Part shown: positions 8,173 to 23,386 of the stretch, one piece after another
How positions within the stretch are numbered: position 1 is the stretch's first letter
How the letters are laid out: each line of letters starts with the position of its first letter
Virus record (IMG/VR): IMGVR_UViG_3300024333_000003
Length of the DNA: 64,000 nucleotides
Strand: one strand, 5' to 3'
DNA from: a virus
Lineage: Duplodnaviria > Heunggongvirae > Uroviricota > Caudoviricetes
The notes under the pieces: model-generated
Database searches by the model: none
Told to the model about the DNA's origin: nothing
The model's input: the letters and a program-made list of their open reading frames with translations, nothing else
Program-made: the position numbers and the translations under genes

Positions 8173-8318
8173 CTATCTTTTCCTCTCCAAACAACAACTC
8201 TTCCAAAGATTTTTCTTTCTTCGGTTTTATTTTATCCTCTGCTTCTTTTCGCATTTTTTGGGCCAATTGCACATCAGTTTGATGTACTTTTGGCTCCAAT
8301 CGCACTTTAATATTCATA

Positions 8319-8346
8319 TATTACGTATTATTCTGCTGATTGTCAA
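8319..8346 (-). promoter_or_regulatory. sigma-70-like promoter (TTGACA-16-TAATAT) reading leftward into the 8172 to 4123 operon
   Basis: Minus strand reads ccTATTGACAatcagcagaataatacgTAATAT. Confidence 0.4.
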
Positions 8347-8536
8347 TAGGCACTAAAAGCATATGAAAATCCTTATCCACTTGATCAACTAACGCTTTCA
8401 CTTTTGGACTATCTTCCTCGTATATATCTAATTCCAATCTCCACACATGTGTAGATTTCATGCGTTTGATGCCTACGATATTAATTTTTATAGTTTTGTC
8501 TTGAATAGTTTCTTCAGATTCTTCCGTTGATTCCAT
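8321..8536 (-). CDS. hypothetical small acidic protein
   Basis: 71-aa ORF. Confidence 0.25.
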   Translation of the reverse strand: MESTEESEETIQDKTIKINIVGIKRMKSTHVWRLELDIYEEDSPKVKALVDQVDKDFHMLLVPIDNQQNNT

Positions 8537-10521
8537 AATCCCATACTTAATCCAGTGGCTAGGTCGATACCTATACCAGTGGCTATTCCTTTTCCAATAT
8601 TTTTATTAAACTCATTTTTCGATGAGGTGGCTGCAGTTACCGCAGTACCAATTACAGGGCCAGCAACCAATGATGGTAACAAATATTCTTTTGTCATATG
8701 TTTCCAATCTATTCCGCCCGTCTTTGGCATATTTGCCAAATTATCACCCAGAATCGGTATACTATCTTCGGTTTGCATTTGTTGTGGATCGTCCGGCGGT
8801 ATACGCATTTCCTTTAATCTGGCTATGTTTAATTGCGCATCTGGTCTTGTTGGTTTAAATTTCAGTTTAATTAATCCAGTCTTAGTAAATGCTGGATGAT
8901 AATTACTCATAGAATCTCCTAATACAGGCATTGGTGCAGATGTATCGTTTAATGTAGCTGTCTGAACAGTCTTTAAACCTTTATGTATTTTTGGATCCGG
9001 TGCTTTTTTGTGAAACGGTTCAAGTAATGCAGCTTGTTTGCGTCTTGGCCAAGTTTCACTTCTAATGTCTTTGTATACAGGCATACGAAGTGCACCACTT
9101 GGTAATTTCTCCTGCGCCAGCACACGCGCTACCTGTCCTACATATTTATTTGGAAGTTCAAACATTTCTTTTCTCATTTGATCTGTGAATCCACTACCAA
9201 CCCGACCAATTTCCTCTTTACCATTGTATGAATAAGTAAATCCACCAGCAGCTTTATTTTTATATTTTCCTTCCCCCGGAAATACCGACATTATACGTAC
9301 ATCATAATCTTTGAATAATTTTGCCTTCAATGGTACCGACTTATTTAAATCATATACTACAACGCCCTCTTGTGTTAACGGATGGTTGCCAGAACGTATT
9401 TCATCTAGTAATACTTGTTTTTCATTTATAGTCGTCGCTAGCGGCGGCATTTTTAATTCTGGTATTTCTTTTGAAATATTTTTTAGTATCTCGAGTTTTT
9501 CACTATATGGATGACTACTTACATCTTTACCTTGATAACGAACCACATCAAAAACTACATGATCAAGCGGCGCGTTTTCTTGGAGTTCTCTTGAACGCCA
9601 TACATTTGACAATAATCTAGCTGCAGTGTCTCTTGATGATAAAACATTACCAGATGTTCTATCTTTTGCAAATAGTTCTCCTAATAATACTGTTTTGCCT
9701 GGCATACTCTCCGGAACTATTGCAGTATGAAGTCCAGTACGAAACGTATGATTAATTAACTTTGCAGGTCCTTTCTTGCTTGGACGATAAGAGTATATTT
9801 CAATAGGCATTCCACGTCTAAGCAAAAACGCATTCATTGCTCCATCATACTTCGGTGCTAATATCTCGGTCGACTTTGTTACATCGATGGATTCAGGCTT
9901 TATACTTTGAAATTTAGGTTTCGAAATGTTAACTTCTGGTCGAGTATCTCGCGTAGGTGTAGAGTTCATAAACAGCCAATCATCCCCACCAGTATGTATT
10001 AAAGTATATTTTTCAGTGTCGCCATTAGACTTATACACATTAAAAGATACATGATCAGGTGTACTTTTAGTAACTTCAACCTTATCCGCTGAGAATAACT
10101 TTACTGTTCCAGCGCCGTAACCTGATTTGATTTCACCAGACCATGCCGAGTACTCTGCAGTATGATCAGGTTGATGCACAGCAAGAACTTTTTCGCCTGG
10201 AAACTTAGGTAAGTTACGAGCGGCCCAACTATGTGCAATTCCGGTACGTGGATCAACAAGTCGTAAATCGAAATGTTCTCCAGCCTTATGCGCTTTATGC
10301 TGTTGCACATTAAAGTGCCAATTTTCTGGTGTAGAGAATTCGCGTGGACGTGTTTTTACGTCCCGATCAGGAATACCTAAAGCACCTGCTTTTCCTTTAT
10401 GCTTAAAATATTCAACCTGTTGAAGTCTATGTACAGCCGCTGAACGTGATGAATACGGCCCGCCCAAATTCTTGCCTTTTTCGGACAATACGTGCCAACC
10501 GTCTTTTCTATGTACTATCAT
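8488..10521 (-). CDS. LigD-type 3'-phosphoesterase (PE) domain fused to an ATP-dependent polynucleotide ligase, with a C-terminal Gly-zipper/hydrophobic tail
   Basis: N-terminus EHFDLRLV...AHSWAARNLP...YGAGTVKLFSADK matches the LigD PE signature (H.D.RLE...SWAVPKGP...YGAG). Ligase motif I KYDG in APKYDGAMNAF. Motif IV EGVVVYDL. C-terminus VAGPVIGTAVTAA...GIATGIGIDLATGLSMGLW. Confidence 0.75.
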   Translation of the reverse strand: MIVHRKDGWHVLSEKGKNLGGPYSSRSAAVHRLQQVEYFKHKGKAGALGIPDRDVKTRPREFSTPENWHFNVQQHKAHKAGEHFDLRLVDPRTGIAHSWAARNLPKFPGEKVLAVHQPDHTAEYSAWSGEIKSGYGAGTVKLFSADKVEVTKSTPDHVSFNVYKSNGDTEKYTLIHTGGDDWLFMNSTPTRDTRPEVNISKPKFQSIKPESIDVTKSTEILAPKYDGAMNAFLLRRGMPIEIYSYRPSKKGPAKLINHTFRTGLHTAIVPESMPGKTVLLGELFAKDRTSGNVLSSRDTAARLLSNVWRSRELQENAPLDHVVFDVVRYQGKDVSSHPYSEKLEILKNISKEIPELKMPPLATTINEKQVLLDEIRSGNHPLTQEGVVVYDLNKSVPLKAKLFKDYDVRIMSVFPGEGKYKNKAAGGFTYSYNGKEEIGRVGSGFTDQMRKEMFELPNKYVGQVARVLAQEKLPSGALRMPVYKDIRSETWPRRKQAALLEPFHKKAPDPKIHKGLKTVQTATLNDTSAPMPVLGDSMSNYHPAFTKTGLIKLKFKPTRPDAQLNIARLKEMRIPPDDPQQMQTEDSIPILGDNLANMPKTGGIDWKHMTKEYLLPSLVAGPVIGTAVTAATSSKNEFNKNIGKGIATGIGIDLATGLSMGLWNQRKNLKKLFKTKL

Positions 10522-10540
10522 ATCTAATAATACTAAAAAA

Positions 10541-11566
10541 TTACGACCGGCGCAATACGTTTCTCCAATAAATTAAAAGATCCTTATTTATATCATCAAG
10601 ACCTTTTGTTGGTTTCCATCCAGTAGCTTGCATAAATTTAGTACAATCGGGTATTTGTAGTGTAATATCAGTAGGCCTGATTAATGCTAAATCTATTTCT
10701 ATTTTGAAATCAGTTGGTTGTATATAACTTTTAGATATTAAATCATTTAATGCTTCACCGACAGTACATGTGTGATTGCCACCTATATTATAAACTTCGC
10801 CGACTGTACATTTATTGGCGGCTAACCAATAAGCATGTACAGCATCGTCTATATGAGCATAAGTGCGCACAGAATTAAGATTTCCCACACGAATTATATA
10901 TTTTGAATTTCCATAAGAGCGATTATTTATATCTTGTCTATACTGCATTTCGCCTTGTACAATTTGATATGCAAAACTAGATAATGCAAATTTCCTTCCC
11001 CGGCGTGCACCTTCGTGACTAAACATCCTGGTAGTTATTATTTTTAATCCAAATGCTTTATGATAATACTGTGACATCAGATCGTGTCCGACTTTTGATA
11101 TACTATATGGATTTGCCGCTCTAATTGGGTTAGTTTCTTTTATAGGCACTTCTGAAGGATCCGGCATACCATATACTTCGCTGGAACTAACACTTACTAT
11201 AATCGGATCTATACGGCCATCTAATACCGCAAGATGTATTTCATCTAATAAATTGGCAGTTCCAATGATATTTGTTTGTAAAGTATGTATCGGATAAATA
11301 AAACTCGTTTCAGGAAAACTCTGGGCGGCAAAATGCCAAATAATATCTGGTTTTGCTTTTCGCAATAACAAACTTAGACTGCCACGATCCATCAGATCCG
11401 CCTCTATGAAATTGACTCGCGGATTACCGTACAAATGTACTATATTCTCGTCACGACTGCGCCAACGTCTAGAAGCGTAAATCATGCCATCAGTATTAGC
11501 TAATAAATAATCAATCATATGTGAACCAACAAATCCAGTGGCACCGGTTATAAGATAATTAGGCAT
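10541..11566 (-). CDS. NDP-sugar 4,6-dehydratase (GDP-mannose/dTDP-glucose dehydratase family)
   Basis: GATGFVGSHMIDYL Rossmann motif. KETNPIRAANPYSISKVGHDLM matches the dehydratase TxxPxxPxSPYxxSK motif. Confidence 0.75.
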   Translation of the reverse strand: MPNYLITGATGFVGSHMIDYLLANTDGMIYASRRWRSRDENIVHLYGNPRVNFIEADLMDRGSLSLLLRKAKPDIIWHFAAQSFPETSFIYPIHTLQTNIIGTANLLDEIHLAVLDGRIDPIIVSVSSSEVYGMPDPSEVPIKETNPIRAANPYSISKVGHDLMSQYYHKAFGLKIITTRMFSHEGARRGRKFALSSFAYQIVQGEMQYRQDINNRSYGNSKYIIRVGNLNSVRTYAHIDDAVHAYWLAANKCTVGEVYNIGGNHTCTVGEALNDLISKSYIQPTDFKIEIDLALIRPTDITLQIPDCTKFMQATGWKPTKGLDDINKDLLIYWRNVLRRS

Positions 11567-12068
11567 TTCTATCCCTTTCTGATATAATAATGTTCTCTTT
11601 TGCTATCGGCCAGTAAATTCCTAGATAAGGATTAAATGGAGCTATAGTAAACTGCGACGCACGTTCATAATATGTAGTCTGCTTATAACTATACACGATA
11701 ATGTCCGTCATAGCTAGCAGACTATTGCCGAATCCTGGCGGCACTAATAACTGATAACGATTTTTGTCATTTAGTGTAAATGCTTGCCATTGATAATATG
11801 TTTTAGACTCTTTGTTATTATCAATAATAACAACGTATATACTGCCGTACACACATTGTACCAATTTCCATGTTTTAAAATCACCGTGGAATCCTCGAAG
11901 GACATGCTTGTATGAAATTGAAATATCATCTTGTATAAATTCATCTGGTACATTTAATGCTTTGTAGTTCTCTTTGTTGAAGGTCTCTAAGTATTCGCCA
12001 CGAAAATCATAGAATACCTCTGGTATAATTAATTTTGCTTTTTCAAATTTAGTGTCTATTATCTTCAT
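11559..12068 (-). CDS. RmlC-like cupin (dTDP-4-dehydrorhamnose 3,5-epimerase family)
   Basis: 169-aa cupin-like protein (FHGDFKTWKLVQCVYGSIYVVIID) located in a sugar cluster. Confidence 0.6.
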   Translation of the reverse strand: MKIIDTKFEKAKLIIPEVFYDFRGEYLETFNKENYKALNVPDEFIQDDISISYKHVLRGFHGDFKTWKLVQCVYGSIYVVIIDNNKESKTYYQWQAFTLNDKNRYQLLVPPGFGNSLLAMTDIIVYSYKQTTYYERASQFTIAPFNPYLGIYWPIAKENIIISERDRNA

Positions 12069-13047
12069 TAAAATAATTCTTTCTCTTTAAATACTCTTCT
12101 TTGTTTGCTAAAAACCATTTCCACGTATGTTCTAATCCATCGCGTAATGTAGTGATAGGTTCAAAGTTTATTAACATACGCGCTTTCGTTATATCCATAA
12201 CGCGTTTTGGAAATCCGTTTGATTTTGTTGTATCCCATTCATGATTGAAATCAATAAACTCATGTAGTGTATCAACTAAATTTTTTATTGTATAATCCTT
12301 GCCACTGCCCAAATTAATATAATTTACATCTGGCATATAATGCATTGCTTGTATAATACCCTCAGCTACATCTACATTATAAGCAAAGTCACGAATTGCT
12401 GAACCATCCCCCCATATTTTTACAGGGTTCTCGCCCGAAGCAATACGATACATCAACGAAGGCACAACCATTGCATTATTTGGATCGAAGTTATCTCCAG
12501 GACCATAGACATTACAAGGACGCAATACGACAAAATTTTTAATACCGTATTGTTCTTTATAAGCCTGTATTTGTAACTCAGCCATGCGCTTTGCCCAACC
12601 TGGATACATATCCATCGGTAGCCCTTGCGTTATACCGTCTTCGTGAAATATTTCAGCACTTTCGTATGCGCCAATAGAACTAGTGAAGGCGACTTTTTTT
12701 ACGTTATTAATACGACATGCTTCAAGTATGTTTGTATTAAATTGTAACAAGGGCACAAAAAAACTAGCTGGTTTCGTTTTTGTAACTTCAATCGATCCTT
12801 TGATACCCGCCAAATGAAATACATAATCCATTCCTTTAGTTATAAACTCTGCGGCATTGAAATATCGTAGATCCAAATATACATATTCTGCTAATCGATT
12901 TGGCTGAAGATCGTCTAATGATACCACAGTAACGATGGCGCCGGCGTTAACTAAAATATCAACAACAGGACGACCTATTAATCCTGTGCCGCCTATTACC
13001 AAAACTTTCTTTCCTCTAAATTCATCGTATTCTGATTGTCTCAACAT
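12049..13047 (-). CDS. NAD-dependent sugar epimerase/reductase. The start is trimmed to the internal Met; the track ORF extends to 13128.
   Basis: KKVLVIGGTGLIGRPVVD Rossmann motif. TAATG overlap with the upstream SDR gene at 13047. Confidence 0.65.
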   Translation of the reverse strand: MLRQSEYDEFRGKKVLVIGGTGLIGRPVVDILVNAGAIVTVVSLDDLQPNRLAEYVYLDLRYFNAAEFITKGMDYVFHLAGIKGSIEVTKTKPASFFVPLLQFNTNILEACRINNVKKVAFTSSIGAYESAEIFHEDGITQGLPMDMYPGWAKRMAELQIQAYKEQYGIKNFVVLRPCNVYGPGDNFDPNNAMVVPSLMYRIASGENPVKIWGDGSAIRDFAYNVDVAEGIIQAMHYMPDVNYINLGSGKDYTIKNLVDTLHEFIDFNHEWDTTKSNGFPKRVMDITKARMLINFEPITTLRDGLEHTWKWFLANKEEYLKRKNYFNEDNRH

Positions 13048-13778
13048 TAAAAACTCCTGCTTTCTCCGCCATCTGCGGTTATACATGCTCCATTTATTAA
13101 ACTCGCCTCTTCCGAACATAAGAAGCAAACCAAAGCGGCAACTTCTTCCGGCGTTCCCATACGCCCTAACGGTAATGTTTCCTCGAATGTACTTCTTTCT
13201 TCCGGCGTTAATTTATCCCATCCCGTCCCAGGAATTGCTATCGCACCAGGACATACCGTATTAAATGTAATATTATGTCGAACCAGTTCTTTTCGTATCG
13301 CTAACGATTTCATTAACGCAATCTCAGCTGCTTTTGCTACAGTGAACCACGGACGTCCTCCGGATTCCTTACCATAGATGGACGAAATAGTAACAACGCG
13401 GCCAAAATTATTTTGTTTCATCCACGGCAACGCGGCCAGGGTTAACTGTCGTGCCGTTTCATAATTTTTTAATATCACACCATCCCAAGATTCTTCGGGA
13501 GTTGTTAAAACATCATCTGTACCCCAACGCCCTCCACCTCCTACATTATTTATAAGAATGTCGATATGTAGATTCTTTATCTGTTCAGCAACTTTTCCTA
13601 TATCTACTGTGTTCGTAAAATCGGCTTGTATACCTTCATATACATAGGAATGAGCTAAATCATCTACATGTCGAGCAGCTATATAAATATGTTCGTTACG
13701 GTCGTCGATAGCAAATCTGTTAGCGATGGCCCATCCGATACCATGCGTTCCGCCAGTTATTAGTACATTCATCTCCAA
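13047..13778 (-). CDS. short-chain dehydrogenase/reductase (SDR)
   Basis: LITGGTHGIGWAIANRFA TGxxxGxG motif. SIYGKE...YTVAKAA YxxxK motif. Confidence 0.7.
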   Translation of the reverse strand: MEMNVLITGGTHGIGWAIANRFAIDDRNEHIYIAARHVDDLAHSYVYEGIQADFTNTVDIGKVAEQIKNLHIDILINNVGGGGRWGTDDVLTTPEESWDGVILKNYETARQLTLAALPWMKQNNFGRVVTISSIYGKESGGRPWFTVAKAAEIALMKSLAIRKELVRHNITFNTVCPGAIAIPGTGWDKLTPEERSTFEETLPLGRMGTPEEVAALVCFLCSEEASLINGACITADGGESRSF

Positions 13779-14473
13779 TTCACCTTTCTTAAATGATATT
13801 TAGATGCATTTACATCTCTAGGTATACAGTACAATAGCCCACGATAAGTTTTCTGTGGGGCTGACCATATGAATTTTAACGTATCTCTCATTTCATCGTC
13901 AAGCAACAACGGATCCATTTTACCATCTATGAAGTCTTTCTCGGTTACTATATCGCAGGCTTCTTTATAATTGGTATAAAAAGAAAATCGCGGATTTATC
14001 TTCAAAAGGTTATCACGCACTATCTCAAAATCCAAAGGTATGCCGTCATATGTAATATGGCCTAATCCGTTTCTAGTATCAAAATCATGTATTATAATGA
14101 TACAGTTATTGGATGGGGCCATTGATGCTAATTCTTGTTTTACAACAAAACGTAATTCTTTAGGTAGACTGGGATCGTAAAAATGAGCATCCAAATAATA
14201 AATGAGCGGTTCATTTAATGTTGTAGATATATATTTTAAGAATTTTGAACTATCCATGTGGAAAATTTTTATATTATGTTTATTTATAGTTCTTAACACA
14301 ACATCAGTATAAAAATCCTCAATGATTTCACATGAATAAGCGTGTTTAAAATAACGCGCCGCTATTTGTATTCCTTGTCCTCGAAATGTGCCTGTTTCTA
14401 TATATGTTTCTACTTTAAATTCCCTTGCTAACCCCTTAATTGTATTCACGGCACCATGATCAGTCCACGACAT
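13769..14473 (-). CDS. putative SAM-dependent O-methyltransferase (TylF/MycF, macrocin-O-MTase-like)
   Basis: YIETGTFRGQG resembles the TylF-family E.G.(F/Y)RG.S motif. Confidence 0.5.
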   Translation of the reverse strand: MSWTDHGAVNTIKGLAREFKVETYIETGTFRGQGIQIAARYFKHAYSCEIIEDFYTDVVLRTINKHNIKIFHMDSSKFLKYISTTLNEPLIYYLDAHFYDPSLPKELRFVVKQELASMAPSNNCIIIIHDFDTRNGLGHITYDGIPLDFEIVRDNLLKINPRFSFYTNYKEACDIVTEKDFIDGKMDPLLLDDEMRDTLKFIWSAPQKTYRGLLYCIPRDVNASKYHLRKVNWR

Positions 14474-15371
14474 TATTACTCTCCACTTTCTTTAAAAATT
14501 TATTATTGATATAAATACGATCTCCCGCTATATTACAATATTCATCTTCAAACGCATAAACATTTAATTTCTTGTCCAACCCATGTTGTAATAAAAGCGA
14601 TGCTACAATAGAGGCTAATCCACCTATTTTTGAATGTTCCTCATATACTATTAATTCTTGATATGGTTTTATGGCTTTCAGAAATTCACCCTCATCTAAT
14701 GGTTTTAATCGCTCTACACAAATGCATCCAGCCTCCGGAAAAGTATCCAATGCTTCGTGCGTTAAAGTGCCATAAGTTAAAACGGCCCGAGTTCTTCCTT
14801 GCCTCAAAACATGAACATAATTATTGGAAGTTATTGCTGGTAAGTCTGGATAAATTCCTTTGTCAAGTCGAATATACCGAGGTGTCGTTGAGTTCTTGAG
14901 AATATGTACCGAATTCCTCATACTACTTTCATCAAAAGGTACAAAAATTTCAATATTAGGTAATGTATTCAAGATTCCTATGTCTTGTGGTATATGATGT
15001 GTTAATCCATCATAACTATAACTCATCCCACCACCGATGCCTATTAACGTAACAGGTAACTTCATAGCACATAGATTTACTTTTATCTGTTCTAAGGCAC
15101 GTTGAATAAGAAATGCGGCAATAGTGTATACATATATTCTCTTACCTTCCATTGCCATGCCGGCAGCAACGTTTATGAGATTCTGTTCTGATATACCAAC
15201 ATTGACAAATTGTTTTGGATATTTTGCTTTAAATTTGTCTAATTCGGTAGCACCCATGTCGGCTGATAATATAAATACATCTTTAGATGTATCTGCCAAT
15301 AATATTAATTCATTAAAAATAGCATCACGCAAGTCCATATGATAATTCCTCCAATGCAGAAATTGTATCAC
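14460..15371 (-). CDS. transketolase, C-terminal (pyrimidine-binding) subunit of a split transketolase
   Basis: FVNVGISEQNLINVAAGMA. Confidence 0.75.
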   Translation of the reverse strand: MIQFLHWRNYHMDLRDAIFNELILLADTSKDVFILSADMGATELDKFKAKYPKQFVNVGISEQNLINVAAGMAMEGKRIYVYTIAAFLIQRALEQIKVNLCAMKLPVTLIGIGGGMSYSYDGLTHHIPQDIGILNTLPNIEIFVPFDESSMRNSVHILKNSTTPRYIRLDKGIYPDLPAITSNNYVHVLRQGRTRAVLTYGTLTHEALDTFPEAGCICVERLKPLDEGEFLKAIKPYQELIVYEEHSKIGGLASIVASLLLQHGLDKKLNVYAFEDEYCNIAGDRIYINNKFLKKVESNNVVD

Positions 15372-16104
15372 CCTTATTTGGTAATCCGTGGTGACTTGTT
15401 ACATTATTCTCCATAAAGGATATTCCTTTACCTTTTACTGTACGAGCTATATAAACTGTCGGTGTTACTATAGATGCATTTTTATAGGCTTCTATCAAAT
15501 GCAAAATATTGTGTCCATCCACAACATACGACATCCATCCAAATGCCGACCATATTTTCATTAACTGTCTATATGTGGTGTTTTTATCCACAGCATCGGT
15601 GGACTGAAATCCATTGCAATCAACAATGACTCGTAAATTTGTTAGGGCATGAACAGCTGCAAAACGTACGGCTTCCCACACTGACCCCTCATTGCACTCG
15701 CCATCTCCCATTAATACAAAAACATTGTCCGGAGTATTATTAAGTTTTTTGGCAAAAGCTATTCCTGCGCCAATACCAAGTCCATTACCTAACGATCCTG
15801 TTATAGTTATGATTCCAGGAATATGATTGTTAGGATGCTCTGATAACAAACTACCATTTTTGCAGAATGTATGTAATTCGGTGTTAGATATAATGTTACG
15901 TTCCGCAAGTACAGTATATAAAGCAATCCCAGAATGGCCTTTACTTAAAATAAATTTAGTATCATTTGTAACAATATCGCCATAATATAACGACACTAAT
16001 ATGTCCATGCATGACAACGCACCGCCAAGATGACCGCGACCAGCCCTTACCGCAGTCTCAAACATTTTCTTACGTAATTGTTTAGCCTTTAAATTCAGAT
16101 CCAT
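15325..16104 (-). CDS. transketolase, N-terminal (ThDP-binding) subunit of a split transketolase
   Basis: GHLGGALSCMDILVSLYY. ThDP motif GDGECNEGSVWEA. Confidence 0.8.
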   Translation of the reverse strand: MDLNLKAKQLRKKMFETAVRAGRGHLGGALSCMDILVSLYYGDIVTNDTKFILSKGHSGIALYTVLAERNIISNTELHTFCKNGSLLSEHPNNHIPGIITITGSLGNGLGIGAGIAFAKKLNNTPDNVFVLMGDGECNEGSVWEAVRFAAVHALTNLRVIVDCNGFQSTDAVDKNTTYRQLMKIWSAFGWMSYVVDGHNILHLIEAYKNASIVTPTVYIARTVKGKGISFMENNVTSHHGLPNKGDTISALEELSYGLA

Positions 16105-17035
16105 ACCATTTCATTGTTTTAAAAATACCCTGTGAAAATGTATGTAGCGGCTTCCATCCATAGTCAACTAATGCTTTATTATTATCTAACGCTAGAATAG
16201 TTGGAATCGCGGGTTTAGAAGTGTCATATGTTATTTTTAAATCCTTGCCTGATTGCACTATAATACTTTCAACCATTTCTTTTACAGTTATAGCTTTGCC
16301 ATAAGACACATTCACTAAATCGTATGGTTTATGTTGTAAGTTAATAGCCAAATCAATAAAATGTACTACATCGTCGACATAGATCAAATCGCGTGCTGTA
16401 TCAGTGCCATTACCCCACACCGTAATCGTGTCTCCGTACTCCGCATCCATTACTTTTCTAACCGTGGCGCCGAATACATGTGAGTGCTCATAATCATATT
16501 TATCTTGTGGTCCAAAAGTATTCGAATGTCGTATAACCATATGTTTAGTACGACCTAATCTTGAATAAAATTCACACATTTTTTCGATATATACCTTAGT
16601 CCACCCGACACCAAAATAAGCCGGTACTATTTTATCCGATTCATCATAGTCCGTTTCTTTTCTCGGCGTGTCCCCAGGTTGATACATCACCCCACAACTC
16701 AGGAATATAAACTGCGGTACACTGTGTTCATAAGCCGCACGTAATAACAATGAGTTCATTACAGCATTGTCAGTTACATGTATGTAAGGTTTTGTTGTTA
16801 TATCTTTCGATCCAGATGTTGTTGCGGCTGCTTGAATTATTACATCATATGGGCCATAACTCATCACATGATCTACGCCTTTTTGCGTTGTTAGATCGCA
16901 CGATAATAATTTTATATTATCAGGACAATTTGCTTTAGTATGAGCAACGCCCACTACTTCGTAATCGTGTCTAAAATAATACGAAATATTATACCCCATA
17001 AATCCTGTGCAACCACAAACTAATATTTTTTTCAT
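16082..17035 (-). CDS. NAD-dependent epimerase/dehydratase family protein
   Basis: MKKILVCGCTGFMGYNISYYF Rossmann N-terminus. Confidence 0.7.
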   Translation of the reverse strand: MKKILVCGCTGFMGYNISYYFRHDYEVVGVAHTKANCPDNIKLLSCDLTTQKGVDHVMSYGPYDVIIQAAATTSGSKDITTKPYIHVTDNAVMNSLLLRAAYEHSVPQFIFLSCGVMYQPGDTPRKETDYDESDKIVPAYFGVGWTKVYIEKMCEFYSRLGRTKHMVIRHSNTFGPQDKYDYEHSHVFGATVRKVMDAEYGDTITVWGNGTDTARDLIYVDDVVHFIDLAINLQHKPYDLVNVSYGKAITVKEMVESIIVQSGKDLKITYDTSKPAIPTILALDNNKALVDYGWKPLHTFSQGIFKTMKWYGSEFKG

Positions 17036-17745
17036 GTCCAGCTTCCTTTTTGCCCCTGTGATATTGTTAATAGATCATTATCCTTATAATGATCTACTGG
17101 TTTCTTTCTTTTCTGTTTCCCATATTCCCCATAAAGAAAATTTAAATACATACGATCTGCCGCACCATAATTATTTAACAATTGATGTGGCTGTGTTTCA
17201 TATGCAGCGATATCCCACAAAATTTGCACAAGTCCGCCTAATTCATAAAGACGTAATGCTCGATCCAGGTCCCAATATAATCCTATAAAATTAGTATCAA
17301 GCCCTCCGATTTCATCCGATGTTTCTCTAGATAAGAATCCATTTAAGGGCACTAACGGACTAGTCATAACATTCATATTGTAATGTTGTATACTCTCAAT
17401 ACTTATAAGATCTGCGGAGGCATATCTACCCGAAAACATTGTTTTTTTATTCGGTGCTTTTTCCCACGCGTCTACAAATCTAGCTAACATATCGTCAGGA
17501 TAACACATATCATCAGCCGTATTCATTATAAATCGACCGGTGCAGGCTCGTCTGGTAATCTCAATTGCCTGTGCGGGTTTAACCGACGTATGAATGTGTT
17601 TAAAATTATCGGGTAAAGTATATGATGGTATGTTAGGACCAGCAAATATCATTTCAAAGGAAACGCCTGCCTTGCGAAAATTCTCGTATAACTCAAGCCA
17701 AATATTAGTACGTATTGCCGCACCAAAAATACTTACCTCGATCAT
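17032..17745 (-). CDS. hypothetical protein (sugar cluster)
   Basis: ORF tightly packed with its neighbours. Confidence 0.3.
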   Translation of the reverse strand: MIEVSIFGAAIRTNIWLELYENFRKAGVSFEMIFAGPNIPSYTLPDNFKHIHTSVKPAQAIEITRRACTGRFIMNTADDMCYPDDMLARFVDAWEKAPNKKTMFSGRYASADLISIESIQHYNMNVMTSPLVPLNGFLSRETSDEIGGLDTNFIGLYWDLDRALRLYELGGLVQILWDIAAYETQPHQLLNNYGAADRMYLNFLYGEYGKQKRKKPVDHYKDNDLLTISQGQKGSWT

Positions 17746-18302
17746 GCCTCCACCTTATGATATAGATCACCGTATTCAATTAATATTGTAGACTTACCAT
17801 CTTCTCGGGTATATGCAATATAATAAGCATATAATATATCATACTTACTTTTTAATTGGACAACCTCAATTTCTCCGCGACATAATAACTTCAATGCCTC
17901 AGTATGATCCTGACAATGTTGAGGACCAGGATATAGCGGCTCGATAGCGCCGACGCTAGTTCGTATTATAATTTTAGGTTTATACCCGCCTTCGGATACT
18001 TTACGTATATTTGCCAAATGGTTAGTTATTTGATTCGCAGCTATGATTAAAAAGTCGGCTCTTGGATAAATACTGATTGGAACTATTCCTTCCAAGGCCA
18101 TACCAATACTAAGCCCCATCTGGAAATCTTCGAATACTGGTAATTCAATACGTTTTTCCATTGGCACATCTACTAAACTTTTAAATAAGGCATGACCGTC
18201 CCACACCACTGATTGTCCGATAAACTTTGTATTTGATTGTTCGCCCAAATACTTCATTGCTCGCTTTAATTCATCAAAATAGTCCATTAGAAATGTATCC
18301 AT
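17742..18302 (-). CDS. ThDP-enzyme beta subunit-like (E1-beta / transketolase pyrimidine-binding domain only)
   Basis: LPVFEDFQMGLSIGMALEG...ADFLIIAANQI resembles E1-beta/TK Pyr domains. Too short to carry the C-terminal domain. Confidence 0.55.
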   Translation of the reverse strand: MDTFLMDYFDELKRAMKYLGEQSNTKFIGQSVVWDGHALFKSLVDVPMEKRIELPVFEDFQMGLSIGMALEGIVPISIYPRADFLIIAANQITNHLANIRKVSEGGYKPKIIIRTSVGAIEPLYPGPQHCQDHTEALKLLCRGEIEVVQLKSKYDILYAYYIAYTREDGKSTILIEYGDLYHKVEA

Positions 18303-18940
18303 TTCCCTATCCCTACATGCGGATAGCGTTCACGTTTATAACTAAAATATGATATATATTTTTCGGGGGATTCAATATCTACAAATAATTCGGCCGATCG
18401 TAATTTACCCCATGCTTCCTGTGTTGGCGTATTTGTGCTTAATCCATTATCTTCTATAACAAAATGAATAGGAAGATCATTACGTACCGAATACTTCACT
18501 GCTTCGTAAAAGATACCACTTTCACTGGCCATATCACCAACAAAGCACCACACCATGCGAGTTGTGTTAAGATTTAGTTTCAGTCCAGCCGCCGCACCAA
18601 CTGCAATAGGTAGTATACCACCAACGATAGCTGACGTATAAAGATGATGTTGTGGAGATTGAAATGATATGCTTTGGCCTGCCAATATTTTATTTAATAA
18701 CTCATCTTTGGGAACTCCGTGTAATAATGCATGATAATGATTTCGCCAAGTTGTAAACACCCAGTCATCTGGATGAATAAATTGAAATAATTCGATCAAA
18801 TAATCCTCATTATTAAAAGACAGGTGAACAGGAGCTTTTATTTGCCCTTGTTCCCATCGAGCAGCGACATCACTTTCAAAATCAATGAGCTCTTGTTTTG
18901 TAATAGTTATTTCTCTTTGTTTTTCTCTAAATAATTCCAT
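18287..18940 (-). CDS. ThDP-dependent E1 alpha-like subunit (acetoin/pyruvate dehydrogenase E1-alpha family, short form)
   Basis: ThDP-binding motif GDMASESGIFYEAVKYSVRNDLPIHFVIEDN (GD-x28-N). Confidence 0.6.
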   Translation of the reverse strand: MELFREKQREITITKQELIDFESDVAARWEQGQIKAPVHLSFNNEDYLIELFQFIHPDDWVFTTWRNHYHALLHGVPKDELLNKILAGQSISFQSPQHHLYTSAIVGGILPIAVGAAAGLKLNLNTTRMVWCFVGDMASESGIFYEAVKYSVRNDLPIHFVIEDNGLSTNTPTQEAWGKLRSAELFVDIESPEKYISYFSYKRERYPHVGIGKWIHF

Positions 18941-18942
18941 AA

Positions 18943-20304
18943 TTATGCTAATTTAAAAATTCTGTTTTCTATACTATACTTGTAATACTTATCTCTGACA
19001 AATATAAATAATTTATTAGGTTTTATATAGCGTATAAGTAATTTCATACACGCGCGTAATGGATTAGGTAATTTAGCCGCAAAACTTCCAAGTAAGAAAA
19101 TATTATAGCGTATTTCTTTTTCACGTTCAGAAAAAGACTTGTACGGGGATTTCTTTGAACAGTCTGTCATATCTCCTACATATGTTGGATCAAGAATACC
19201 TTTTTGTAAACTATATTCATAAAGTTTGGTACCATTCATTGGTACTGTAGTTGAACAGGCCAAATATGTAACCTTACCTTTATAACCAAAATCAATGATA
19301 TCCATATCATCTTTCACCGTAGATTCAGGAGCCGCCAACATAAAATTAACCCACGTGCGTATTCCTGTATCTGCGATCATACGCGCTGTTTTCGTTACAT
19401 CGATCTTTTGCATATGTCGTCCCAATACTGCTTCGCGCACATGTTCTGACATACTGTCAACGGATAGATGAACGGAGTAGCAATTGGCGGACTTCAACAT
19501 AGCAAGTAAATCTTTATCTACGTGGTCAATGCGTAAATAGCAATTGAACGGCAAATCTACTTCCTTCTTATATCTACGGGTAAACGCATCAAGCCAACTA
19601 TCTGCTTTTAATGCGAAAAGATCGTCCCCGAATTTTATGAACTCTGTGCGATAATTTTTACGAACACGTTGTATTTCATCAATAATTCGATCTGGTGAAA
19701 ACCGTCTAGCAGATTTACCCTTCCCTTTATACAAAGCACGATACGCGCTATTTGCACAATAATGACAAAAGAACGGGCATCCCCTTGTAGCGTAAAAGGT
19801 TTTTTTAGGAGTATTCTTTAAGAAGGAATTATTCAACACCAAATCCCTGTCCGCTTCGGGCAAAATATTTAAGTCACTAATGAGTGGTCGTATAGGATTT
19901 ATCTTTTCTTTTGTTATTATATTTAAAACATTGTCGTAGGATTCATTATTTTCTACACATTTAAGAAAGTCATCAAATACAAGATCTCCCTCGCCAACAC
20001 AGAAAGCGTCGATGGCCGTGTTTTCGAAATCTTGCGGTGCAAAAGTAATCTGAGGCCCACCAGCTATAGATAAAAAATTGTGTTTTGTTTTCGCTAATTT
20101 ATGTGCATCAATCATTTCTTTATATCCATAAACATTTAAAGAATAAGCTACAATGTCCGGTTTATATGAATTCAAAACAGTTGGATAATCTGTTAAAGCA
20201 CAGAAAAATGTCTGATGATCACGTTTTTTAGCAATAGCGGATAAGTGCGCTATCGCTATATGATCAGCATAATCCAATTCATATATACAGAACAAAATTT
20301 TCAT
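18943..20304 (-). CDS. B12-binding radical SAM enzyme (class B radical-SAM methyltransferase-like). The start is trimmed to MKILF; the track ORF extends to 20382.
   Basis: CxxxCxxC radical-SAM motif in RGCPFFCHYCANSAY, preceded by an N-terminal B12-binding-like domain. ATGA overlap with the upstream gene. Confidence 0.7.
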   Translation of the reverse strand: MKILFCIYELDYADHIAIAHLSAIAKKRDHQTFFCALTDYPTVLNSYKPDIVAYSLNVYGYKEMIDAHKLAKTKHNFLSIAGGPQITFAPQDFENTAIDAFCVGEGDLVFDDFLKCVENNESYDNVLNIITKEKINPIRPLISDLNILPEADRDLVLNNSFLKNTPKKTFYATRGCPFFCHYCANSAYRALYKGKGKSARRFSPDRIIDEIQRVRKNYRTEFIKFGDDLFALKADSWLDAFTRRYKKEVDLPFNCYLRIDHVDKDLLAMLKSANCYSVHLSVDSMSEHVREAVLGRHMQKIDVTKTARMIADTGIRTWVNFMLAAPESTVKDDMDIIDFGYKGKVTYLACSTTVPMNGTKLYEYSLQKGILDPTYVGDMTDCSKKSPYKSFSEREKEIRYNIFLLGSFAAKLPNPLRACMKLLIRYIKPNKLFIFVRDKYYKYSIENRIFKLA

Positions 20305-21149
20305 ACAGTAAATTCTTCTAATGTAAATGGAGACGCGCCCCATGTGGCGGCGTTCTTGGTAGCACCTGCATTTATTAAACAACCGTAGATGTCATTTATT
20401 CGTGAGCCGGTTCCACCGAAACCATATCCCGGATGACTCATATGCATGGTAGCGATATCAAAACATGGTTTTACGGGATATCCTGCGAGAATAGCTTTCT
20501 TATTTAAATTACTATCAGTGTACCCTTTATAAAAATATTCTTCTTCATAACCACGTATTTCAAATAAAACGTCTTTATGAAAAAACTGAAAATCACCACA
20601 ACAATCAAGGATAGACCACACATCACCAGCGCAGGCCCCACTAAAACCGTGCCCACCATATCTTGGTAGATTTTCCCTAAAATACCTTTGAACAACTTCT
20701 ATATCTTTAGCATTAAATTGTTTTAATTCCGCAAAATCTACATCATGCCTAGAAATGACCCAACCTATTTTTGGGTCTGCGGTTAATTTTTCAAATGATG
20801 CTCGATCGGGTACAATCGAATCTAATGATGTTATTAATATCCAGTCTCCTGTGGACCTACGTATTGCCATATTATTACCTAGTAACCCACAACTTGCCGG
20901 CGCACCAGGATCGTTCTTTGTGACTTGATCTGTTTGTGCCTTATTTACTTTTAATACTCGTAATTTACCTGTTTTATTTATGGCATCTCCAAGCGCTGTT
21001 ATCAAGTCTATACCTGACGGTGAATTCCAATCAACATAAATTACTTCATCGAATGTGGCGGTCAATGCATTAATACTAAATGGTACTCGTAAATGTAAAT
21101 CACCCCGATAACCATCATTTCTACAAGTTGCGACGGCAGTTAATTTCAT
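20301..21149 (-). CDS. hypothetical protein, possible GT-A glycosyltransferase
   Basis: EVIYVDWNSPSG weakly resembles the GT2 hhVVDDGS motif. Confidence 0.3.
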   Translation of the reverse strand: MKLTAVATCRNDGYRGDLHLRVPFSINALTATFDEVIYVDWNSPSGIDLITALGDAINKTGKLRVLKVNKAQTDQVTKNDPGAPASCGLLGNNMAIRRSTGDWILITSLDSIVPDRASFEKLTADPKIGWVISRHDVDFAELKQFNAKDIEVVQRYFRENLPRYGGHGFSGACAGDVWSILDCCGDFQFFHKDVLFEIRGYEEEYFYKGYTDSNLNKKAILAGYPVKPCFDIATMHMSHPGYGFGGTGSRINDIYGCLINAGATKNAATWGASPFTLEEFTV

Positions 21150-21631
21150 TTGTCGCCTTTAAATATATTCCAATTACCGAACTCCTGAATTAACCCTGCA
21201 GCCAGCGCATCTATTTTTAAGTCTACACGCTCTCCGCGTTCACGCGAAATAACATTCTTAGCTGTATTACGTACACCATTTATCGAGTGCGTCAATTTTA
21301 AAAGTTTATCTTGTTCTGAACCACCAGCACGCGCCTTGCTTTCGTTCTCCCATATATACCTATTGGTTAGCATAACTATTAATATAGCACGAATCATATC
21401 AGCACTAACTGACGGTGTTGTAGTTAATAACATATTGATATCGGCCATGATAAGTTTTTGTTCTTCTTCGTATGCTGCAGAATTCTCAGATGCGAATATT
21501 GACTTCAAGATAACTATACTAAGACGATCTATAAGTTCGGCAAAAGTAGGTACATAGTAACGTGTTTGAGCCTCCATTAATTTATCCTTTGTTTTAAAGT
21601 GGTAAAAAAGTCTCCAATTAAATGAGACCAT
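21146..21631 (-). CDS. hypothetical protein
   Basis: ORF. Confidence 0.3.
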   Translation of the reverse strand: MVSFNWRLFYHFKTKDKLMEAQTRYYVPTFAELIDRLSIVILKSIFASENSAAYEEEQKLIMADINMLLTTTPSVSADMIRAILIVMLTNRYIWENESKARAGGSEQDKLLKLTHSINGVRNTAKNVISRERGERVDLKIDALAAGLIQEFGNWNIFKGDK

Positions 21632-22419
21632 TTAAATTTATTTACAATCACTAAGCGTTCATTTTCATCCATTGGTCGCGGGGTATCTTTTAGAATTTCA
21701 ACTAATTGTTCTACTATATCTTTGTCCTTGACTATTGTATATGCATGTTCCCGATACCAATCATAAGTTGGATCATCTGGTATAATCGGGCGTGCCCCGC
21801 AAAACAAGCCTTCAATTGCCATTAATTCGAAGCCTTCAATAAAACGTAACGCTGATATATATTGTGTGCCATTAAGTACCTCAGCGAACTCATTATCTGG
21901 CATATAATCTAAGTATCTGTAGAATCGTTTGTCCCATCCAAAATTTTGTCCGGTATGATATAAAGTTTGTTTTAATTGTTTGACTGCTTCATATACTTTA
22001 TCTATGGCCTCAGTTTCAGCGATATGCCCCGTAGCAATTACTTTAATGGCACGATTACCCGTATTTGTGCGACAAAAAACATTATCGTCTGCACCCCATG
22101 GCATACCATAATAAGGGATATCTTTATCAGTATATTTACGTAAGTCATGAAATGAAACGGCCATAATAGATTGTGCCCAATATTTTGCGTAATCTATTTC
22201 ATGCGCACTGGCGGTAAAATAACAATGTTGAATCACCACTTTCGGTTTAGGCATCTCTAATGCAGGAATTTCTCCGCCTCCAACTACATGAACAATCATA
22301 ATGTCACAATTTTCATAGTTGGTCCATTCGACCCAATCAGGCGCATACCTATGCAACGCATCTGAAATGCGTTTAAAAGCTATACCCCATTCATTTCTAC
22401 GAAATTCAAATATCTTCAT
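21577..22419 (-). CDS. hypothetical protein (first gene of the sugar cluster)
   Basis: ORF. Confidence 0.3.
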   Translation of the reverse strand: MKIFEFRRNEWGIAFKRISDALHRYAPDWVEWTNYENCDIMIVHVVGGGEIPALEMPKPKVVIQHCYFTASAHEIDYAKYWAQSIMAVSFHDLRKYTDKDIPYYGMPWGADDNVFCRTNTGNRAIKVIATGHIAETEAIDKVYEAVKQLKQTLYHTGQNFGWDKRFYRYLDYMPDNEFAEVLNGTQYISALRFIEGFELMAIEGLFCGARPIIPDDPTYDWYREHAYTIVKDKDIVEQLVEILKDTPRPMDENERLVIVNKFKWSHLIGDFFTTLKQRIN

Positions 22420-22700
22420 AATGTCTTAAATTTCACTTTCTTTATTTTATTACTTTTCTTTAAATTGCATCGCTCACACGTAATTTGTAAATTACGAACA
22501 CCATTCATACGAAAGGGAGTACGTTTTTTGGAATACCGTGATACTGGTATTATATGATCAAAATGGTATATCTCGTGTTCTATTTGCTGTTTGCATATTT
22601 CGCATGTCAATACTCCGTATTTGTTTATATTGTCACTTTTAACTTTCTCGAGCACAGATGTAAATATTTTAGTGCGCTTTATGTGCCTATCTCCATCCAT
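22416..22700 (-). CDS. HNH endonuclease
   Basis: CEICKQQ...HFDHIIPVS...NLQITCERCNLKKSNK matches the HNH motif. Confidence 0.7.
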   Translation of the reverse strand: MDGDRHIKRTKIFTSVLEKVKSDNINKYGVLTCEICKQQIEHEIYHFDHIIPVSRYSKKRTPFRMNGVRNLQITCERCNLKKSNKIKKVKFKTL

Positions 22701-23086
22701 CTTTGTACATTTTTATGGTGTTGTGGATTTTCTTTTTCCAACAATTCAGGTGTAATTTCTTTATAAACAAAACCTATTACTATACACACTTCAGTACCAG
22801 TCTTCGTAATTTGTGCTTTGAGCCCTTCACCATTTGGACCAATATGATCCACAGCGTTGGCCACTGTTTGCAATATATCTTCTTTTAGTAATGGGCGTTC
22901 ATCTACTTCGCCCCAAAAAGACATTGAATCACCTTTTAATTGGGTAAAAACTGTTATTAATTCTTTTGTGATTTTTGGATTGACTTGTTTAAAAGCATGT
23001 AGTATAGATGTTGAAATGAATTCAAGTGGCTTATCTTTTGATAATAATTCGTCTTGTTTTATTGTAAATAATGCAGACTTTAACAT
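22679..23086 (-). CDS. hypothetical protein
   Basis: ORF. Confidence 0.3.
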   Translation of the reverse strand: MLKSALFTIKQDELLSKDKPLEFISTSILHAFKQVNPKITKELITVFTQLKGDSMSFWGEVDERPLLKEDILQTVANAVDHIGPNGEGLKAQITKTGTEVCIVIGFVYKEITPELLEKENPQHHKNVQRWMEIGT

Positions 23087-23095
23087 GTTTTTTCC

Positions 23096-23104
23096 GGTAT
23101 AAGA
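23096..23104 (+). promoter_or_regulatory. GGTATAAGA promoter element (-10-like TATAAG)
   Basis: One of 13 same-strand intergenic copies of this 9-mer. Confidence 0.5.
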
Positions 23105-23156
23105 TAGTTATAATTTAGAAGCTTTCTTCAAACAAAAACTCTAAAAAAGGAGAACT

Positions 23157-23351
23157 ATGGCTAAACGTCGTAGAAAGAAAAAGTTTTCTAATTTTCATAT
23201 AAAAGCACTACAGTCGTATAAGGTTTTACCTAGTGAAGATACAATAACACTTGCGAACTTGCGCGATCCAAGACTAACAAGAACAGATGGTGGACAAGTA
23301 CGTCCTGTATTTTATGATGAAAATCTAAATGTAGCCTTTGGGTCAAATTAG
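23157..23351 (+). CDS. small highly basic protein (MAKRRRKKK...), lone + strand cassette
   Basis: RBS aaaggag 7 nt upstream. Own promoter and terminator. Confidence 0.45.
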   Translation: MAKRRRKKKFSNFHIKALQSYKVLPSEDTITLANLRDPRLTRTDGGQVRPVFYDENLNVAFGSN

Positions 23352-23385
23352 TTTTGGGTCCGAAAGGACCTAAAACTTTTTTTAC
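23350..23385 (+). terminator. rho-independent terminator
   Basis: 12-bp stem agttttgggtcc/ggacctaaaact (one G-U pair), GAAA loop, T7 run. Confidence 0.8.
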
Positions 23386-23386
23386 T

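Follow-up and report, generated by a model that had tools for sequence, protein, structure and literature searches.

A minimal E1-type pair and a split transketolase in a phage operon: two thiamine diphosphate enzymes predicted to branch nucleotide sugars

The 64,000-nucleotide stretch of viral DNA analysed here (IMG/VR record IMGVR_UViG_3300024333_000003, Caudoviricetes; hereafter the window) carries on its minus strand a sugar operon that encodes two different two-subunit thiamine diphosphate (ThDP) enzymes: a transketolase split into two genes, and an alpha/beta pair of the E1 family reduced to its two cores, which we call mini-E1. Both are recognizable members of their families with intact cofactor and catalytic residues, both stand in an operon of sugar enzymes, and the gene set around them recurs in other genomes. 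We propose, with a probability of about 50%, that this operon builds one or two unusual nucleoside diphosphate (NDP)-activated 6-deoxy sugars by means of two independent ThDP carboligases. A sequence-only reading of the same DNA had already pointed to the two pairs, to their ThDP dependence, to a nucleotide-sugar context and to C2 transfer as their chemistry. The open reading frames (ORFs) of both pairs lie where that reading placed them, on the minus strand, in one operon with a 4,6-dehydratase, an RmlC-like 3,5-epimerase and reductases. When we checked whether either pair belongs to a non-ThDP family, matches by profile, to PDB structures and by fold placed both in true ThDP families.

The alpha subunit of mini-E1 matches E1 proteins by sequence and profile (E1_dh, 3.8e-15; TIGR03182, 9.8e-22; PDB E1 alpha, 5.4e-9), with a TPP_enzyme_C match that is secondary only (6.2e-6). 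Its AlphaFold model has a predicted local distance difference test (pLDDT) score of 81, and the best 50 Foldseek matches listed from the PDB are all E1 alpha chains, at template modelling (TM) scores of 0.61-0.73 on the query and ~0.42 on the target; given the latter value, the protein spans less than half of a full E1 alpha. It consists of a diphosphate-binding (PP) domain of E1 fold whose ThDP/Mg motif reads GDMASESG...EDNG (18443-18538, minus strand) and retains the Asp and Asn metal ligands, with G135, D136, M137, E163 and N165 invariant across 13 family members. A GDG-type motif had been claimed for both enzymes; this is correct for the transketolase (GDGECNEG...DCNG), while the E1 alpha-like protein has GDM, which is invariant in its family. 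Alignment with the full-length E1 alpha of two megaphage contigs (L019 and L020) and with human PDHA1 indicates that ~30 internal and ~95 C-terminal amino acids of full-length E1 alpha are missing. The chain ends after the active-site loop, in the tail YPHVGIGKWIHF (18290-18325, minus strand), where P207, H208, G210, G212 and F217 are invariant in the family alignment and His208 aligns with the loop His of full-length E1 alpha. A functional role of His208, which lies where the model is of low confidence, is putative.

The beta subunit reaches Pfam Transket_pyr only below threshold (1.8e-3) and PDB entry 1ik6 at 7.8e-10, and a profile built from 23 members matches E1 beta chains only (4.9e-13 to 4.6e-5), over residues 6-177, which correspond to the pyrimidine-binding (Pyr) domain. 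Two residues stand out as invariant: the cofactor-activating Glu, E58 (ELPVFE at 18114-18146), which aligns with human beta-E59, and H129 (GPQHCQD at 17907-17927), the equivalent of beta-His128. No Transketolase_C domain was found in this protein by Pfam scan. The earlier description of the beta subunit as cut down to its Pyr domain thus agrees with the extent of the match, but not the verdict that this is unusual, as the family median is 178 aa and the alpha subunit is shortened as well. A split phosphonopyruvate or sulfopyruvate decarboxylase was also considered for the pair and rejected, the best families being E1_dh and the pyruvate dehydrogenase E1, with no phosphoenolpyruvate (PEP) mutase in the operon.

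In canonical E1 enzymes, the C-terminal domain of the beta chain docks the E2 component. Both this domain and the full C-terminal region of alpha are absent from mini-E1, and no lipoyl, E2 or E3 domain was found in the ~37 window ORFs scanned, a set that takes in the whole operon and part of the small ORFs. Because the E2-interface regions are gone and the scanned ORFs contain no E2, E3 or lipoyl domain, mini-E1 does not appear to be part of a dehydrogenase complex; the losses fit an E1 that has given up contact with the lipoyl domain of an E2.

The mini-E1 architecture is widespread. In a set of 1.84 billion representatives, 191 representative clusters match the alpha family at E <= 1e-30, mostly of 195-255 aa, with a few fused forms of ~350-550 aa. 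Wherever the alpha and beta genes are not fused they adjoin each other, separated by -12 to +28 nt; six of the 78 distinct homologues that gave the beta median quoted above are alpha-beta fusions. The family is marked by the signatures WRNHYHALLHG, GDM(T/A)xE(S/T)G...EDN and a C-terminal YPHxGxGxWxxF. The short two-core form is therefore the norm of a sizeable family, not a quirk of this phage. A set of 78 bacterial and archaeal genome loci, picked by the alpha motif alone and blind to transketolase, contains many from Pelagibacteraceae single cells plus one Pelagibacter chromosome, and the remainder lie on chromosomal contigs of Verrucomicrobiota, Actinomycetota, Chloroflexota, bacteria of the candidate phyla radiation (CPR) and DPANN archaea. 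Among phages, the cyanophages S-SM2 (SSM2_198) and P-TIM68 carry members of the same family, with 39-41% identity to the alpha part, in a sugar or lipopolysaccharide (LPS)-like cluster; they differ in that alpha and beta are fused into ~400 aa and in that the cluster is of heptose type and lacks a transketolase. These fused proteins are annotated as 'transketolase central region-containing protein' (phrog_34187, function listed as unknown), and the JGI name for mini-E1 homologues is 'pyruvate/acetoin dehydrogenase alpha subunit'.

The second enzyme is a transketolase by all matches obtained for its two halves: the N-terminal subunit matches Pfam Transketolase_N (6e-25), the NCBIfam transketolase NF004559 (3.5e-68) and PDB entry 6yak (1.2e-51), and the C-terminal subunit matches Transket_pyr (2.3e-26), Transketolase_C (3.9e-9) and 6yaj (7.5e-33). 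For the latter, gene callers and the sequence favour an ATG at 15338, giving 292 aa, over the GTG at 15371. The N-terminal subunit has a transketolase PP domain with the ThDP/Mg motif GDGECNEG...DCNG (15610-15708, minus strand) and, by alignment, retains the equivalents of E. coli H26, H66, H100, D155, N185 and H261, catalytic histidines included; the E. coli numbering was confirmed at H26, H66 and H100. The C-terminal subunit joins a Pyr domain, with the activating Glu (GISEQN, E411), to a C-terminal transketolase domain and retains the equivalents of R358, S385, E411, D469 and H473. A protein search of the phage collection with the N-terminal half returned only unannotated fragments or bacterial-looking records.

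The sugar-phosphate set of R358, S385, H461 and R520 is incomplete in the window transketolase, where H461 is replaced by Gly and R520 by Lys (GIGGGMSYSYDGLTHH at 14994-15041). The best solved match to both halves is the split transketolase of Carboxydothermus hydrogenoformans (6yak/6yaj), which shares the cofactor motifs and has an alpha2beta2 split architecture (PMC7661550). In the 6yaj alignment, however, it has THAG where the phosphate-binding His lies and, at the R520 position, Arg, where the window protein, encoded in a sugar operon, has GIGGG and Lys. The same departure marks 25 aligned homologues from phages and bacteria that are linked to such clusters: none of them has His at position 461 (24 have Gly and 1 has Leu), and at position 520 there are 20 with Lys, 2 with Arg and 3 with some other residue. 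Judged from these alignments, the cluster-linked transketolases form a subgroup without the phosphate-binding His461, and in some relatives, mostly from Pelagibacteraceae, H100 is also changed to Gln and H261 to Ser. In the window enzyme, cofactor chemistry and recognition of the ketol donor look intact while the grip on the sugar phosphate looks altered, a combination that is compatible with a non-standard substrate but does not pin the substrate down.

To place mini-E1 in its genomic context, all ORFs within 6 kb of the alpha gene were clustered for 84 distinct loci. Extended short-chain dehydrogenases/reductases (SDRs) are present in 65 of these loci, DegT aminotransferases in 38, GHMP kinases in 35, RmlC-like epimerases and B12-binding radical S-adenosylmethionine (SAM) enzymes in 27 each, nucleotidyltransferases in 26, SIS isomerases in 16, FabG-like SDRs in 15, the split transketolase in 12, aldo-keto reductases in 11 and ThDP enzymes of the YerE or acetolactate synthase (ALS) type in 10. 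These recurrent neighbour families identify mini-E1 as a component of nucleotide-sugar pathways, and the frequency of the B12-radical-SAM enzymes suggests a functional link with mini-E1. The 12 loci that also bear the transketolase have a distinctive company: FabG-like SDRs in 8, YerE/ALS-type enzymes in 7 and GT2-like glycosyltransferases in 5, with SIS in 2 and DegT in 1.

The two enzymes occur together more often than chance would allow. Of the 78 genome loci, 16 have a split transketolase no more than 10 kb from mini-E1. If a genome of a few Mb holds one transketolase, we would roughly expect to meet it in less than 1% of 20-kb stretches; the frequency found, ~20%, greatly surpasses this rough figure, so the pairing exceeds chance. 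A 134-kb phage contig (L018) has 12 genes in common with the window operon at 27-69% identity, in shuffled order, and a 164.6-kb contig (L001/L027) combines three ThDP enzymes (ALS-type, split transketolase and mini-E1) with PanB and an aldo-keto reductase. The latter contig (JALNZI010000002.1, 164,629 bp) was deposited as part of a 'Candidatus Omnitrophota' metagenome-assembled genome. It nevertheless encodes NrdD, a UvsW-like helicase and a sigma factor, and it coincides with a JGI contig for which there is a viral relative, so it is probably a mis-binned phage genome. In two megaphage contigs, L019 (351 kb; 8009-11700) and L020 (548 kb; 7123-11730), a full-length E1 pair lies immediately upstream of the split transketolase, with an E1 alpha of 316 aa in L019 and one fused behind a GT2-like N-terminal part in L020 (608-aa ORF), and E1 beta chains of 351 and 348 aa, respectively.

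The combination of E1 and transketolase is thus recurrent and selected, yet the two are separable modules. The close relative L008 has the same core without transketolase and without the GT2-like gene, L021-L026 have the transketolase without any E1, and ~80% of the genome loci have mini-E1 with no transketolase nearby. The earlier suggestion of two sequential C2 transfers on one sugar is not borne out by this distribution; since a GT2-like glycosyltransferase of its own tends to accompany the transketolase, two different sugars are as likely as one. The arrangement has been glimpsed before and left uninterpreted, in a Fonsibacter hypervariable region with 'four transketolase genes with one or two of three domains' of uncertain function (PMC6811365) and in Nanopelagicales, where an island-borne 'specific transketolase' was read by the authors as an enhancer of the pentose-phosphate pathway (PMC12817590).

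Enzymes of the E1 type are known to branch sugars in antibiotic clusters, where the alphaKADH2 pairs comprise AviB1/AviB2 (avilamycin), Pau11/Pau12, also named Plm8/Plm9 (paulomycin), EvdU5/EvdS3 and KbDH-alpha/beta (kibdelomycin). The aldgamycin pair is AlmDI/DII. Such pairs take a C2 unit from pyruvate and attach it to a sugar at a keto group on C3 or C4 (PMC12247030), as evidenced by knockouts in the aldgamycin (with feeding), avilamycin and paulomycin clusters and by KbDH-alpha/beta in vitro (PMC12247030, PMC4425429, PMC4802897). The branch ketone is afterwards reduced, aminated or otherwise modified, with YerF, or Pau7 as proposed, acting as ketoreductases (PMC12247030, PMC9306805, PMC4425429, PMC4802897). 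Like mini-E1, these are two-gene E1 enzymes in deoxysugar clusters beside a 4,6-dehydratase, an epimerase and reductases, with no E2 or E3 (PMC12247030, PMC4425429, PMC4802897, PMC10338323), and both the content of the window operon and the neighbours in the 84 loci place mini-E1 in a deoxysugar cluster with a dehydratase and a branch reductase. By analogy, the expected chemistry would be the same, namely addition of the pyruvate C2 unit to a keto-sugar followed by ketoreduction. The differences are that the antibiotic pairs are full-length (325 aa for Pau11 and 345 aa for Pau12, against 217 and 186 aa here) and have GDG where mini-E1 has GDM, that mini-E1 has lost the whole beta C-terminal domain and the two alpha stretches described above, and that the antibiotic pairs come from actinomycetes whereas mini-E1 is found in phages, SAR11 and diverse uncultured lineages. 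A full-length E1 form occupies the same position beside the split transketolase in the megaphage contigs.

Comparable precedents exist for the other enzyme. Split-gene transketolases have been proposed, though not proven, to transfer a hydroxyacetyl group to a keto-sugar in miharamycin and amipurimycin biosynthesis (PMC12247030); these too are two-subunit enzymes in sugar-modification clusters with a proposed C2 ketol transfer, and the window transketolase differs from the Streptomyces proteins in being phage-borne, with relatives in SAR11, Chloroflexota and other lineages. The 13 further putative sequences for keto-sugars in the same 2025 review are all from Streptomycetes, with none characterised (PMC12247030). 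In yersiniose and erwiniose pathways, YerE and ErwE, ALS-like ThDP flavoenzymes, add an acyl anion equivalent to an NDP-4-keto-deoxysugar, and YerF and ErwF then reduce the branch with NAD(P)H (PMC9306805). YerE and ErwE belong to another ThDP superfamily, however, as single chains of Pyr-middle-PP order, and the window holds no such gene, although genes of this type accompany mini-E1 and transketolase in 7 of the 12 related loci noted above. ThDP branching on a nucleotide sugar, as the sequence-only reading had envisaged, therefore has literature precedent for E1-type pairs and stands as a proposal for split transketolases (PMC12247030, PMC4425429, PMC4802897), and by this analogy the chemistry it put forward is plausible. 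A possible parallel, E1 alpha/beta genes in the virenose region of the Coxiella O-antigen, found no confirmation in a paper on phase variation and was dropped.

Under the reading we propose, the 4,6-dehydratase and the RmlC-like epimerase would generate an NDP-4-keto-6-deoxyhexose. The mini-E1 heteromer would decarboxylate pyruvate, and the resulting hydroxyethyl-ThDP carbanion would add to the keto-sugar, leaving a C-acetyl branch on a tertiary alcohol, while the split transketolase would take a dihydroxyethyl (hydroxyacetyl) unit from hydroxypyruvate or a ketose phosphate and pass it to the same or a second keto-sugar. The FabG-like and Fcl-like reductases could then reduce the new ketone and the ring ketone, the methyltransferase-fold protein and the B12-radical-SAM enzyme could tailor the product, and the GT2-like enzymes would pass the sugar to the virion or to the host envelope. 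The donors, the acceptors, the order of steps, the sharing of one sugar and the final target in this scheme are all suppositions. Glycosylation of the virion is possible because the operon lies inside the structural module on the same strand, and modification of the host envelope has been proposed for pelagimyophage LPS genes (PMC7029224); the two destinations are, by analogy, equally open. A more elaborate version, in which the phage glycosylates its own virion with a sugar that bears two ThDP-installed C2 units (acetyl/hydroxyethyl and hydroxyacetyl) and is further methylated by B12-radical-SAM and SAM chemistry, strikes us as quite unlikely.

Several points weigh against the proposal of two sugar-branching carboligases. 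The dehydratase (10541-11566) reaches no cutoff specific to one nucleotide type, and no nucleotidyltransferase gene was found in the window. Transketolases normally take aldehyde acceptors, and activity on keto-sugars is unproven even in Streptomyces (PMC12247030). The branching function is a prediction by analogy for the whole mini-E1 family and the whole transketolase subgroup, and the independent occurrence of the two modules means that joint action on one sugar is not required.

These points give room to other explanations, of which the one to be taken most seriously, though still unlikely, is that only mini-E1 acts on a nucleotide sugar and the transketolase is an auxiliary metabolic gene working on sugar phosphates, supplying precursors such as sedoheptulose-7-phosphate (for heptoses) or, while infection lasts, rebalancing the pentose-phosphate pathway. 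The full complement of canonical histidines in the N-terminal half, the retention of R358, S385, D469 and H473 and the fact that the closest solved relative is a functional split transketolase would all suit such a role, as would the location of the transketolase beside heptose genes of the SIS (GmhA-like) and GHMP-kinase families in L021 and L022, the heptose genes of several mini-E1 loci and of cyanophage S-SM2, and the pentose-phosphate interpretation given to the Nanopelagicales enzyme (PMC12817590). The window, however, contains no SIS, GHMP-kinase or nucleotidyltransferase gene, and its transketolase genes overlap those of an Fcl-like reductase and the methyltransferase-fold protein by 14-23 nt. 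The subgroup moreover lacks His461, with Arg520 replaced by Lys in most members, and across loci it correlates with FabG-like, YerE/ALS-type and GT2-like genes and not with SIS.

Two further alternatives were weighed. The ThDP enzymes and the FabG-like reductase might make an acyloin or diol of the acetoin/butanediol kind that later becomes a glycan substituent, leaving the carbon skeleton of the sugar unbranched, an idea prompted by the JGI name of the homologues, by the match of the FabG-like protein to a meso-2,3-butanediol dehydrogenase model (1.9e-32, below cutoff), by the ALS-type enzyme, PanB and aldo-keto reductase of the related phage L001 and by the acetoin chemistry of the E1-type Ao:DCPIP oxidoreductase (PMC12247030). 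We give it little weight, given that scans of the operon gave no acyl or alkyl transferase, no CoA ligase and no carrier protein, that the constant neighbours are enzymes that make keto-sugars, and that the characterised E1-type pairs of sugar clusters act on the keto-sugar (PMC12247030). Very improbable is a simple decarboxylase acting on phosphonopyruvate, sulfopyruvate or a 2-keto-acid sugar of nonulosonic or octulosonic type: split sulfopyruvate and phosphonopyruvate decarboxylases have a similar two-subunit size (~210 + 180 aa), some mini-E1 loci carry NeuB and CMP-sugar synthetase genes, and B12-radical-SAM enzymes are frequent neighbours here as in phosphonate pathways, but sequence, profile and fold all indicate the E1 family, with PP preceding Pyr, and not a decarboxylase family, the window operon gave no match to PEP mutase, NeuB or a CMP-transferase, and the commonest neighbours are SDR enzymes of keto-sugars.

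The remaining genes of the operon are listed in Table 1. For the dehydratase, matches to the dTDP-, GDP- and CDP-type enzymes all fall below their cutoffs. Genes of the SIS, GHMP-kinase, DegT and ALS types are absent from the window. The extended SDR at 12049-13128, whose true start probably lies ~37 codons inside the ORF, shares 55-62% identity with its counterparts in those loci, bacterial and phage, where the split transketolase is likewise present. The FabG-like SDR is, after the examples of YerF and Pau7, a candidate reductase of the branch ketone. Next to it lies the 234-aa protein, which has no Pfam, NCBIfam or PHROG match and belongs to a family of 265 homologues, none of them named (all are given as 'hypothetical protein') or covered by a Pfam model. 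Its gene adjoins the FabG-like gene in 5 of 5 cases. The AlphaFold model of the protein (pLDDT 94) resembles class I SAM-dependent methyltransferases, which make up nearly all of the best 50 Foldseek PDB matches listed (TM ~0.45), one of the listed matches being SpnF, a cyclase of the same fold. For the 237-aa protein, a word-indexed homology search gave two matches only, and its identity came from a profile of 14 homologues taken from the fetched loci, which matches GalT1 (5hea, 9.5e-6) and SpsA (4.6e-5) in the PDB and in which D78 and D79 are invariant. The protein at 21146-21631 has homologues in 18 of 98 mini-E1 loci (for example L018:17378-17818 and L059:12860-13357, with three copies in L020); this family of ~140-160 aa is marked by Arg, Asn, Trp and His residues that do not vary and has no PDB profile match, and Pfam scans of 13 members gave only sub-threshold and inconsistent matches to TaqI_C and DUF4254. 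The B12-radical-SAM gene stops 2 nt upstream of mini-E1 alpha; the window enzyme is only distantly related to the family of ~510 aa that neighbours mini-E1 in the 27 loci of the census (L004-L104).

Table 1 Features of the sugar operon, in transcription order, and of the surrounding structural region. Positions are those of the window.
Feature	Position	Strand	Length	Evidence or remark
Small ORF	22679-23086	-		First in transcription order
HNH endonuclease	22416-22700	-		Inside operon, just upstream of possible glycosyltransferase
Possible second glycosyltransferase	21577-22419	-	280 aa	Weak phrog_2170 glycosyltransferase match, 1.5e-4; no Pfam match
Protein of unnamed family	21146-21631	-	~143-161 aa	Recurs near mini-E1
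282-aa protein	20301-21149	-	282 aa	No family match; phage-lineage-specific, no homologue in any fetched locus
B12-binding radical SAM enzyme	18943-20304 (ORF to 20382)	-	453 aa called	Radical_SAM 5e-15; B12-binding 9.5e-6
Mini-E1 alpha	18287-18940	-	217 aa	PP domain core, E1 alpha type
Mini-E1 beta	17742-18302	-	186 aa (181 aa from next ATG)	Pyr domain only
GT-A/GT2-like glycosyltransferase	17032-17745	-	237 aa	Profile match to PDB
Extended SDR, Fcl-like epimerase/reductase	16082-17035	-		Epimerase 2e-34; NF047922 5.8e-34
Split transketolase, N-terminal (PP) subunit	15325-16104	-	259 aa	
Split transketolase, C-terminal (Pyr + TK_C) subunit	14460-15338 (ORF to GTG at 15371)	-	292 aa	
Class I SAM-methyltransferase-fold protein	13769-14473	-	234 aa	
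FabG-like classical SDR	13047-13778	-		adh_short_C2 1.3e-38
Second Fcl-like extended SDR (GDP-fucose-synthase-like)	12049-13128	-		Epimerase 4.9e-43; NF047922 6.5e-44
RmlC-like 3,5-epimerase	11559-12068	-		dTDP_sugar_isom 1.1e-42; TIGR01221 5.4e-40
NDP-hexose 4,6-dehydratase	10541-11566	-		GDP_Man_Dehyd 9e-64
Major head protein	25138-26052	-		
Large terminase	31993-34653	-		
Tail sheath	4809-6452	-		

The viral nature of the window is evident from its major head protein, large terminase and tail sheath. The sugar operon runs from ~22419 to 10541 between the head genes and the sheath, inside the late or structural region, and most of its adjacent genes overlap by 4-23 nt. Since promoter-like sites occur at chance level (76 found against 75.5 expected), the limits of the operon were drawn from the gene overlaps, from a 300-nt gap at 23086-23387 and from a hairpin at 23350-23377. 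Located in this gap, upstream of the operon, the hairpin has a 12-bp stem flanked by runs of T and A and looks like a bidirectional terminator dividing the head genes from the sugar genes. The HNH gene at 22416-22700 may mark a mobile insertion. At the other end, directly downstream of the operon, a 677-aa protein (8488-10521, minus strand) fuses a LigD 3'-phosphoesterase domain to an ATP-dependent DNA ligase. Metagenomic contigs as long as 215 kb carry an identical copy of mini-E1 alpha. When the 12-kb cluster was compared by megablast with 50,697 phage records, nothing matched, so that no annotated phage among them is close at the DNA level.

Other features of the window include a large terminase ORF of 886 aa, in which an insert with a LAGLIDADG_3 domain (396-461) divides a GpA-type ATPase segment (39-138) from the terminase body (511-877); the insert looks like an intein or a homing-endonuclease insertion. 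A family A DNA polymerase seems to be split, with a 3'-5' exonuclease domain and only positions 29-128 of the 381 of the polymerase domain in the ORF at 1362-2378 (plus strand), which is followed by ORFs at 2631-3431, 3404-3697 and 3697-4074. An SPFH/Band 7 family protein is encoded at 60861-61820 on the plus strand (Band_7, 9.2e-20), and no tRNAs were found in the window.

ThDP enzymes that branch keto-sugars were known or proposed already. What is new is the minimal two-core E1 architecture as a widespread family, the presence of mini-E1 and of the transketolase subgroup in phages and abundant aquatic bacteria instead of actinomycete antibiotic clusters, and the way in which single sugar clusters repeatedly combine two or three ThDP carboligases. 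ThDP enzymes that branch keto-sugars are sought as biocatalysts for chiral tertiary alcohols, and the 2025 review lists, besides those of miharamycin and amipurimycin, only 13 candidate transketolases, with E1-type enzymes that are all full-length (PMC12247030). Our findings point to a far wider non-actinobacterial and viral reservoir, and the minimal E1 core, with ~400 aa in total, should express easily. The analysis also flags a sugar pathway that large phages have in common with SAR11 and other abundant aquatic bacteria, where it lies in hypervariable islands for surface glycans; such glycans probably decide phage recognition. Were the more elaborate and quite unlikely version of the scheme correct, mini-E1 would be the smallest heteromeric ThDP carboligase known, and the transketolase subgroup the first shown to accept nucleotide-keto-sugars; given the same toolkit in the hypervariable islands of SAR11, the ocean's most abundant bacteria and their phages would then display multiply C-branched sugars.

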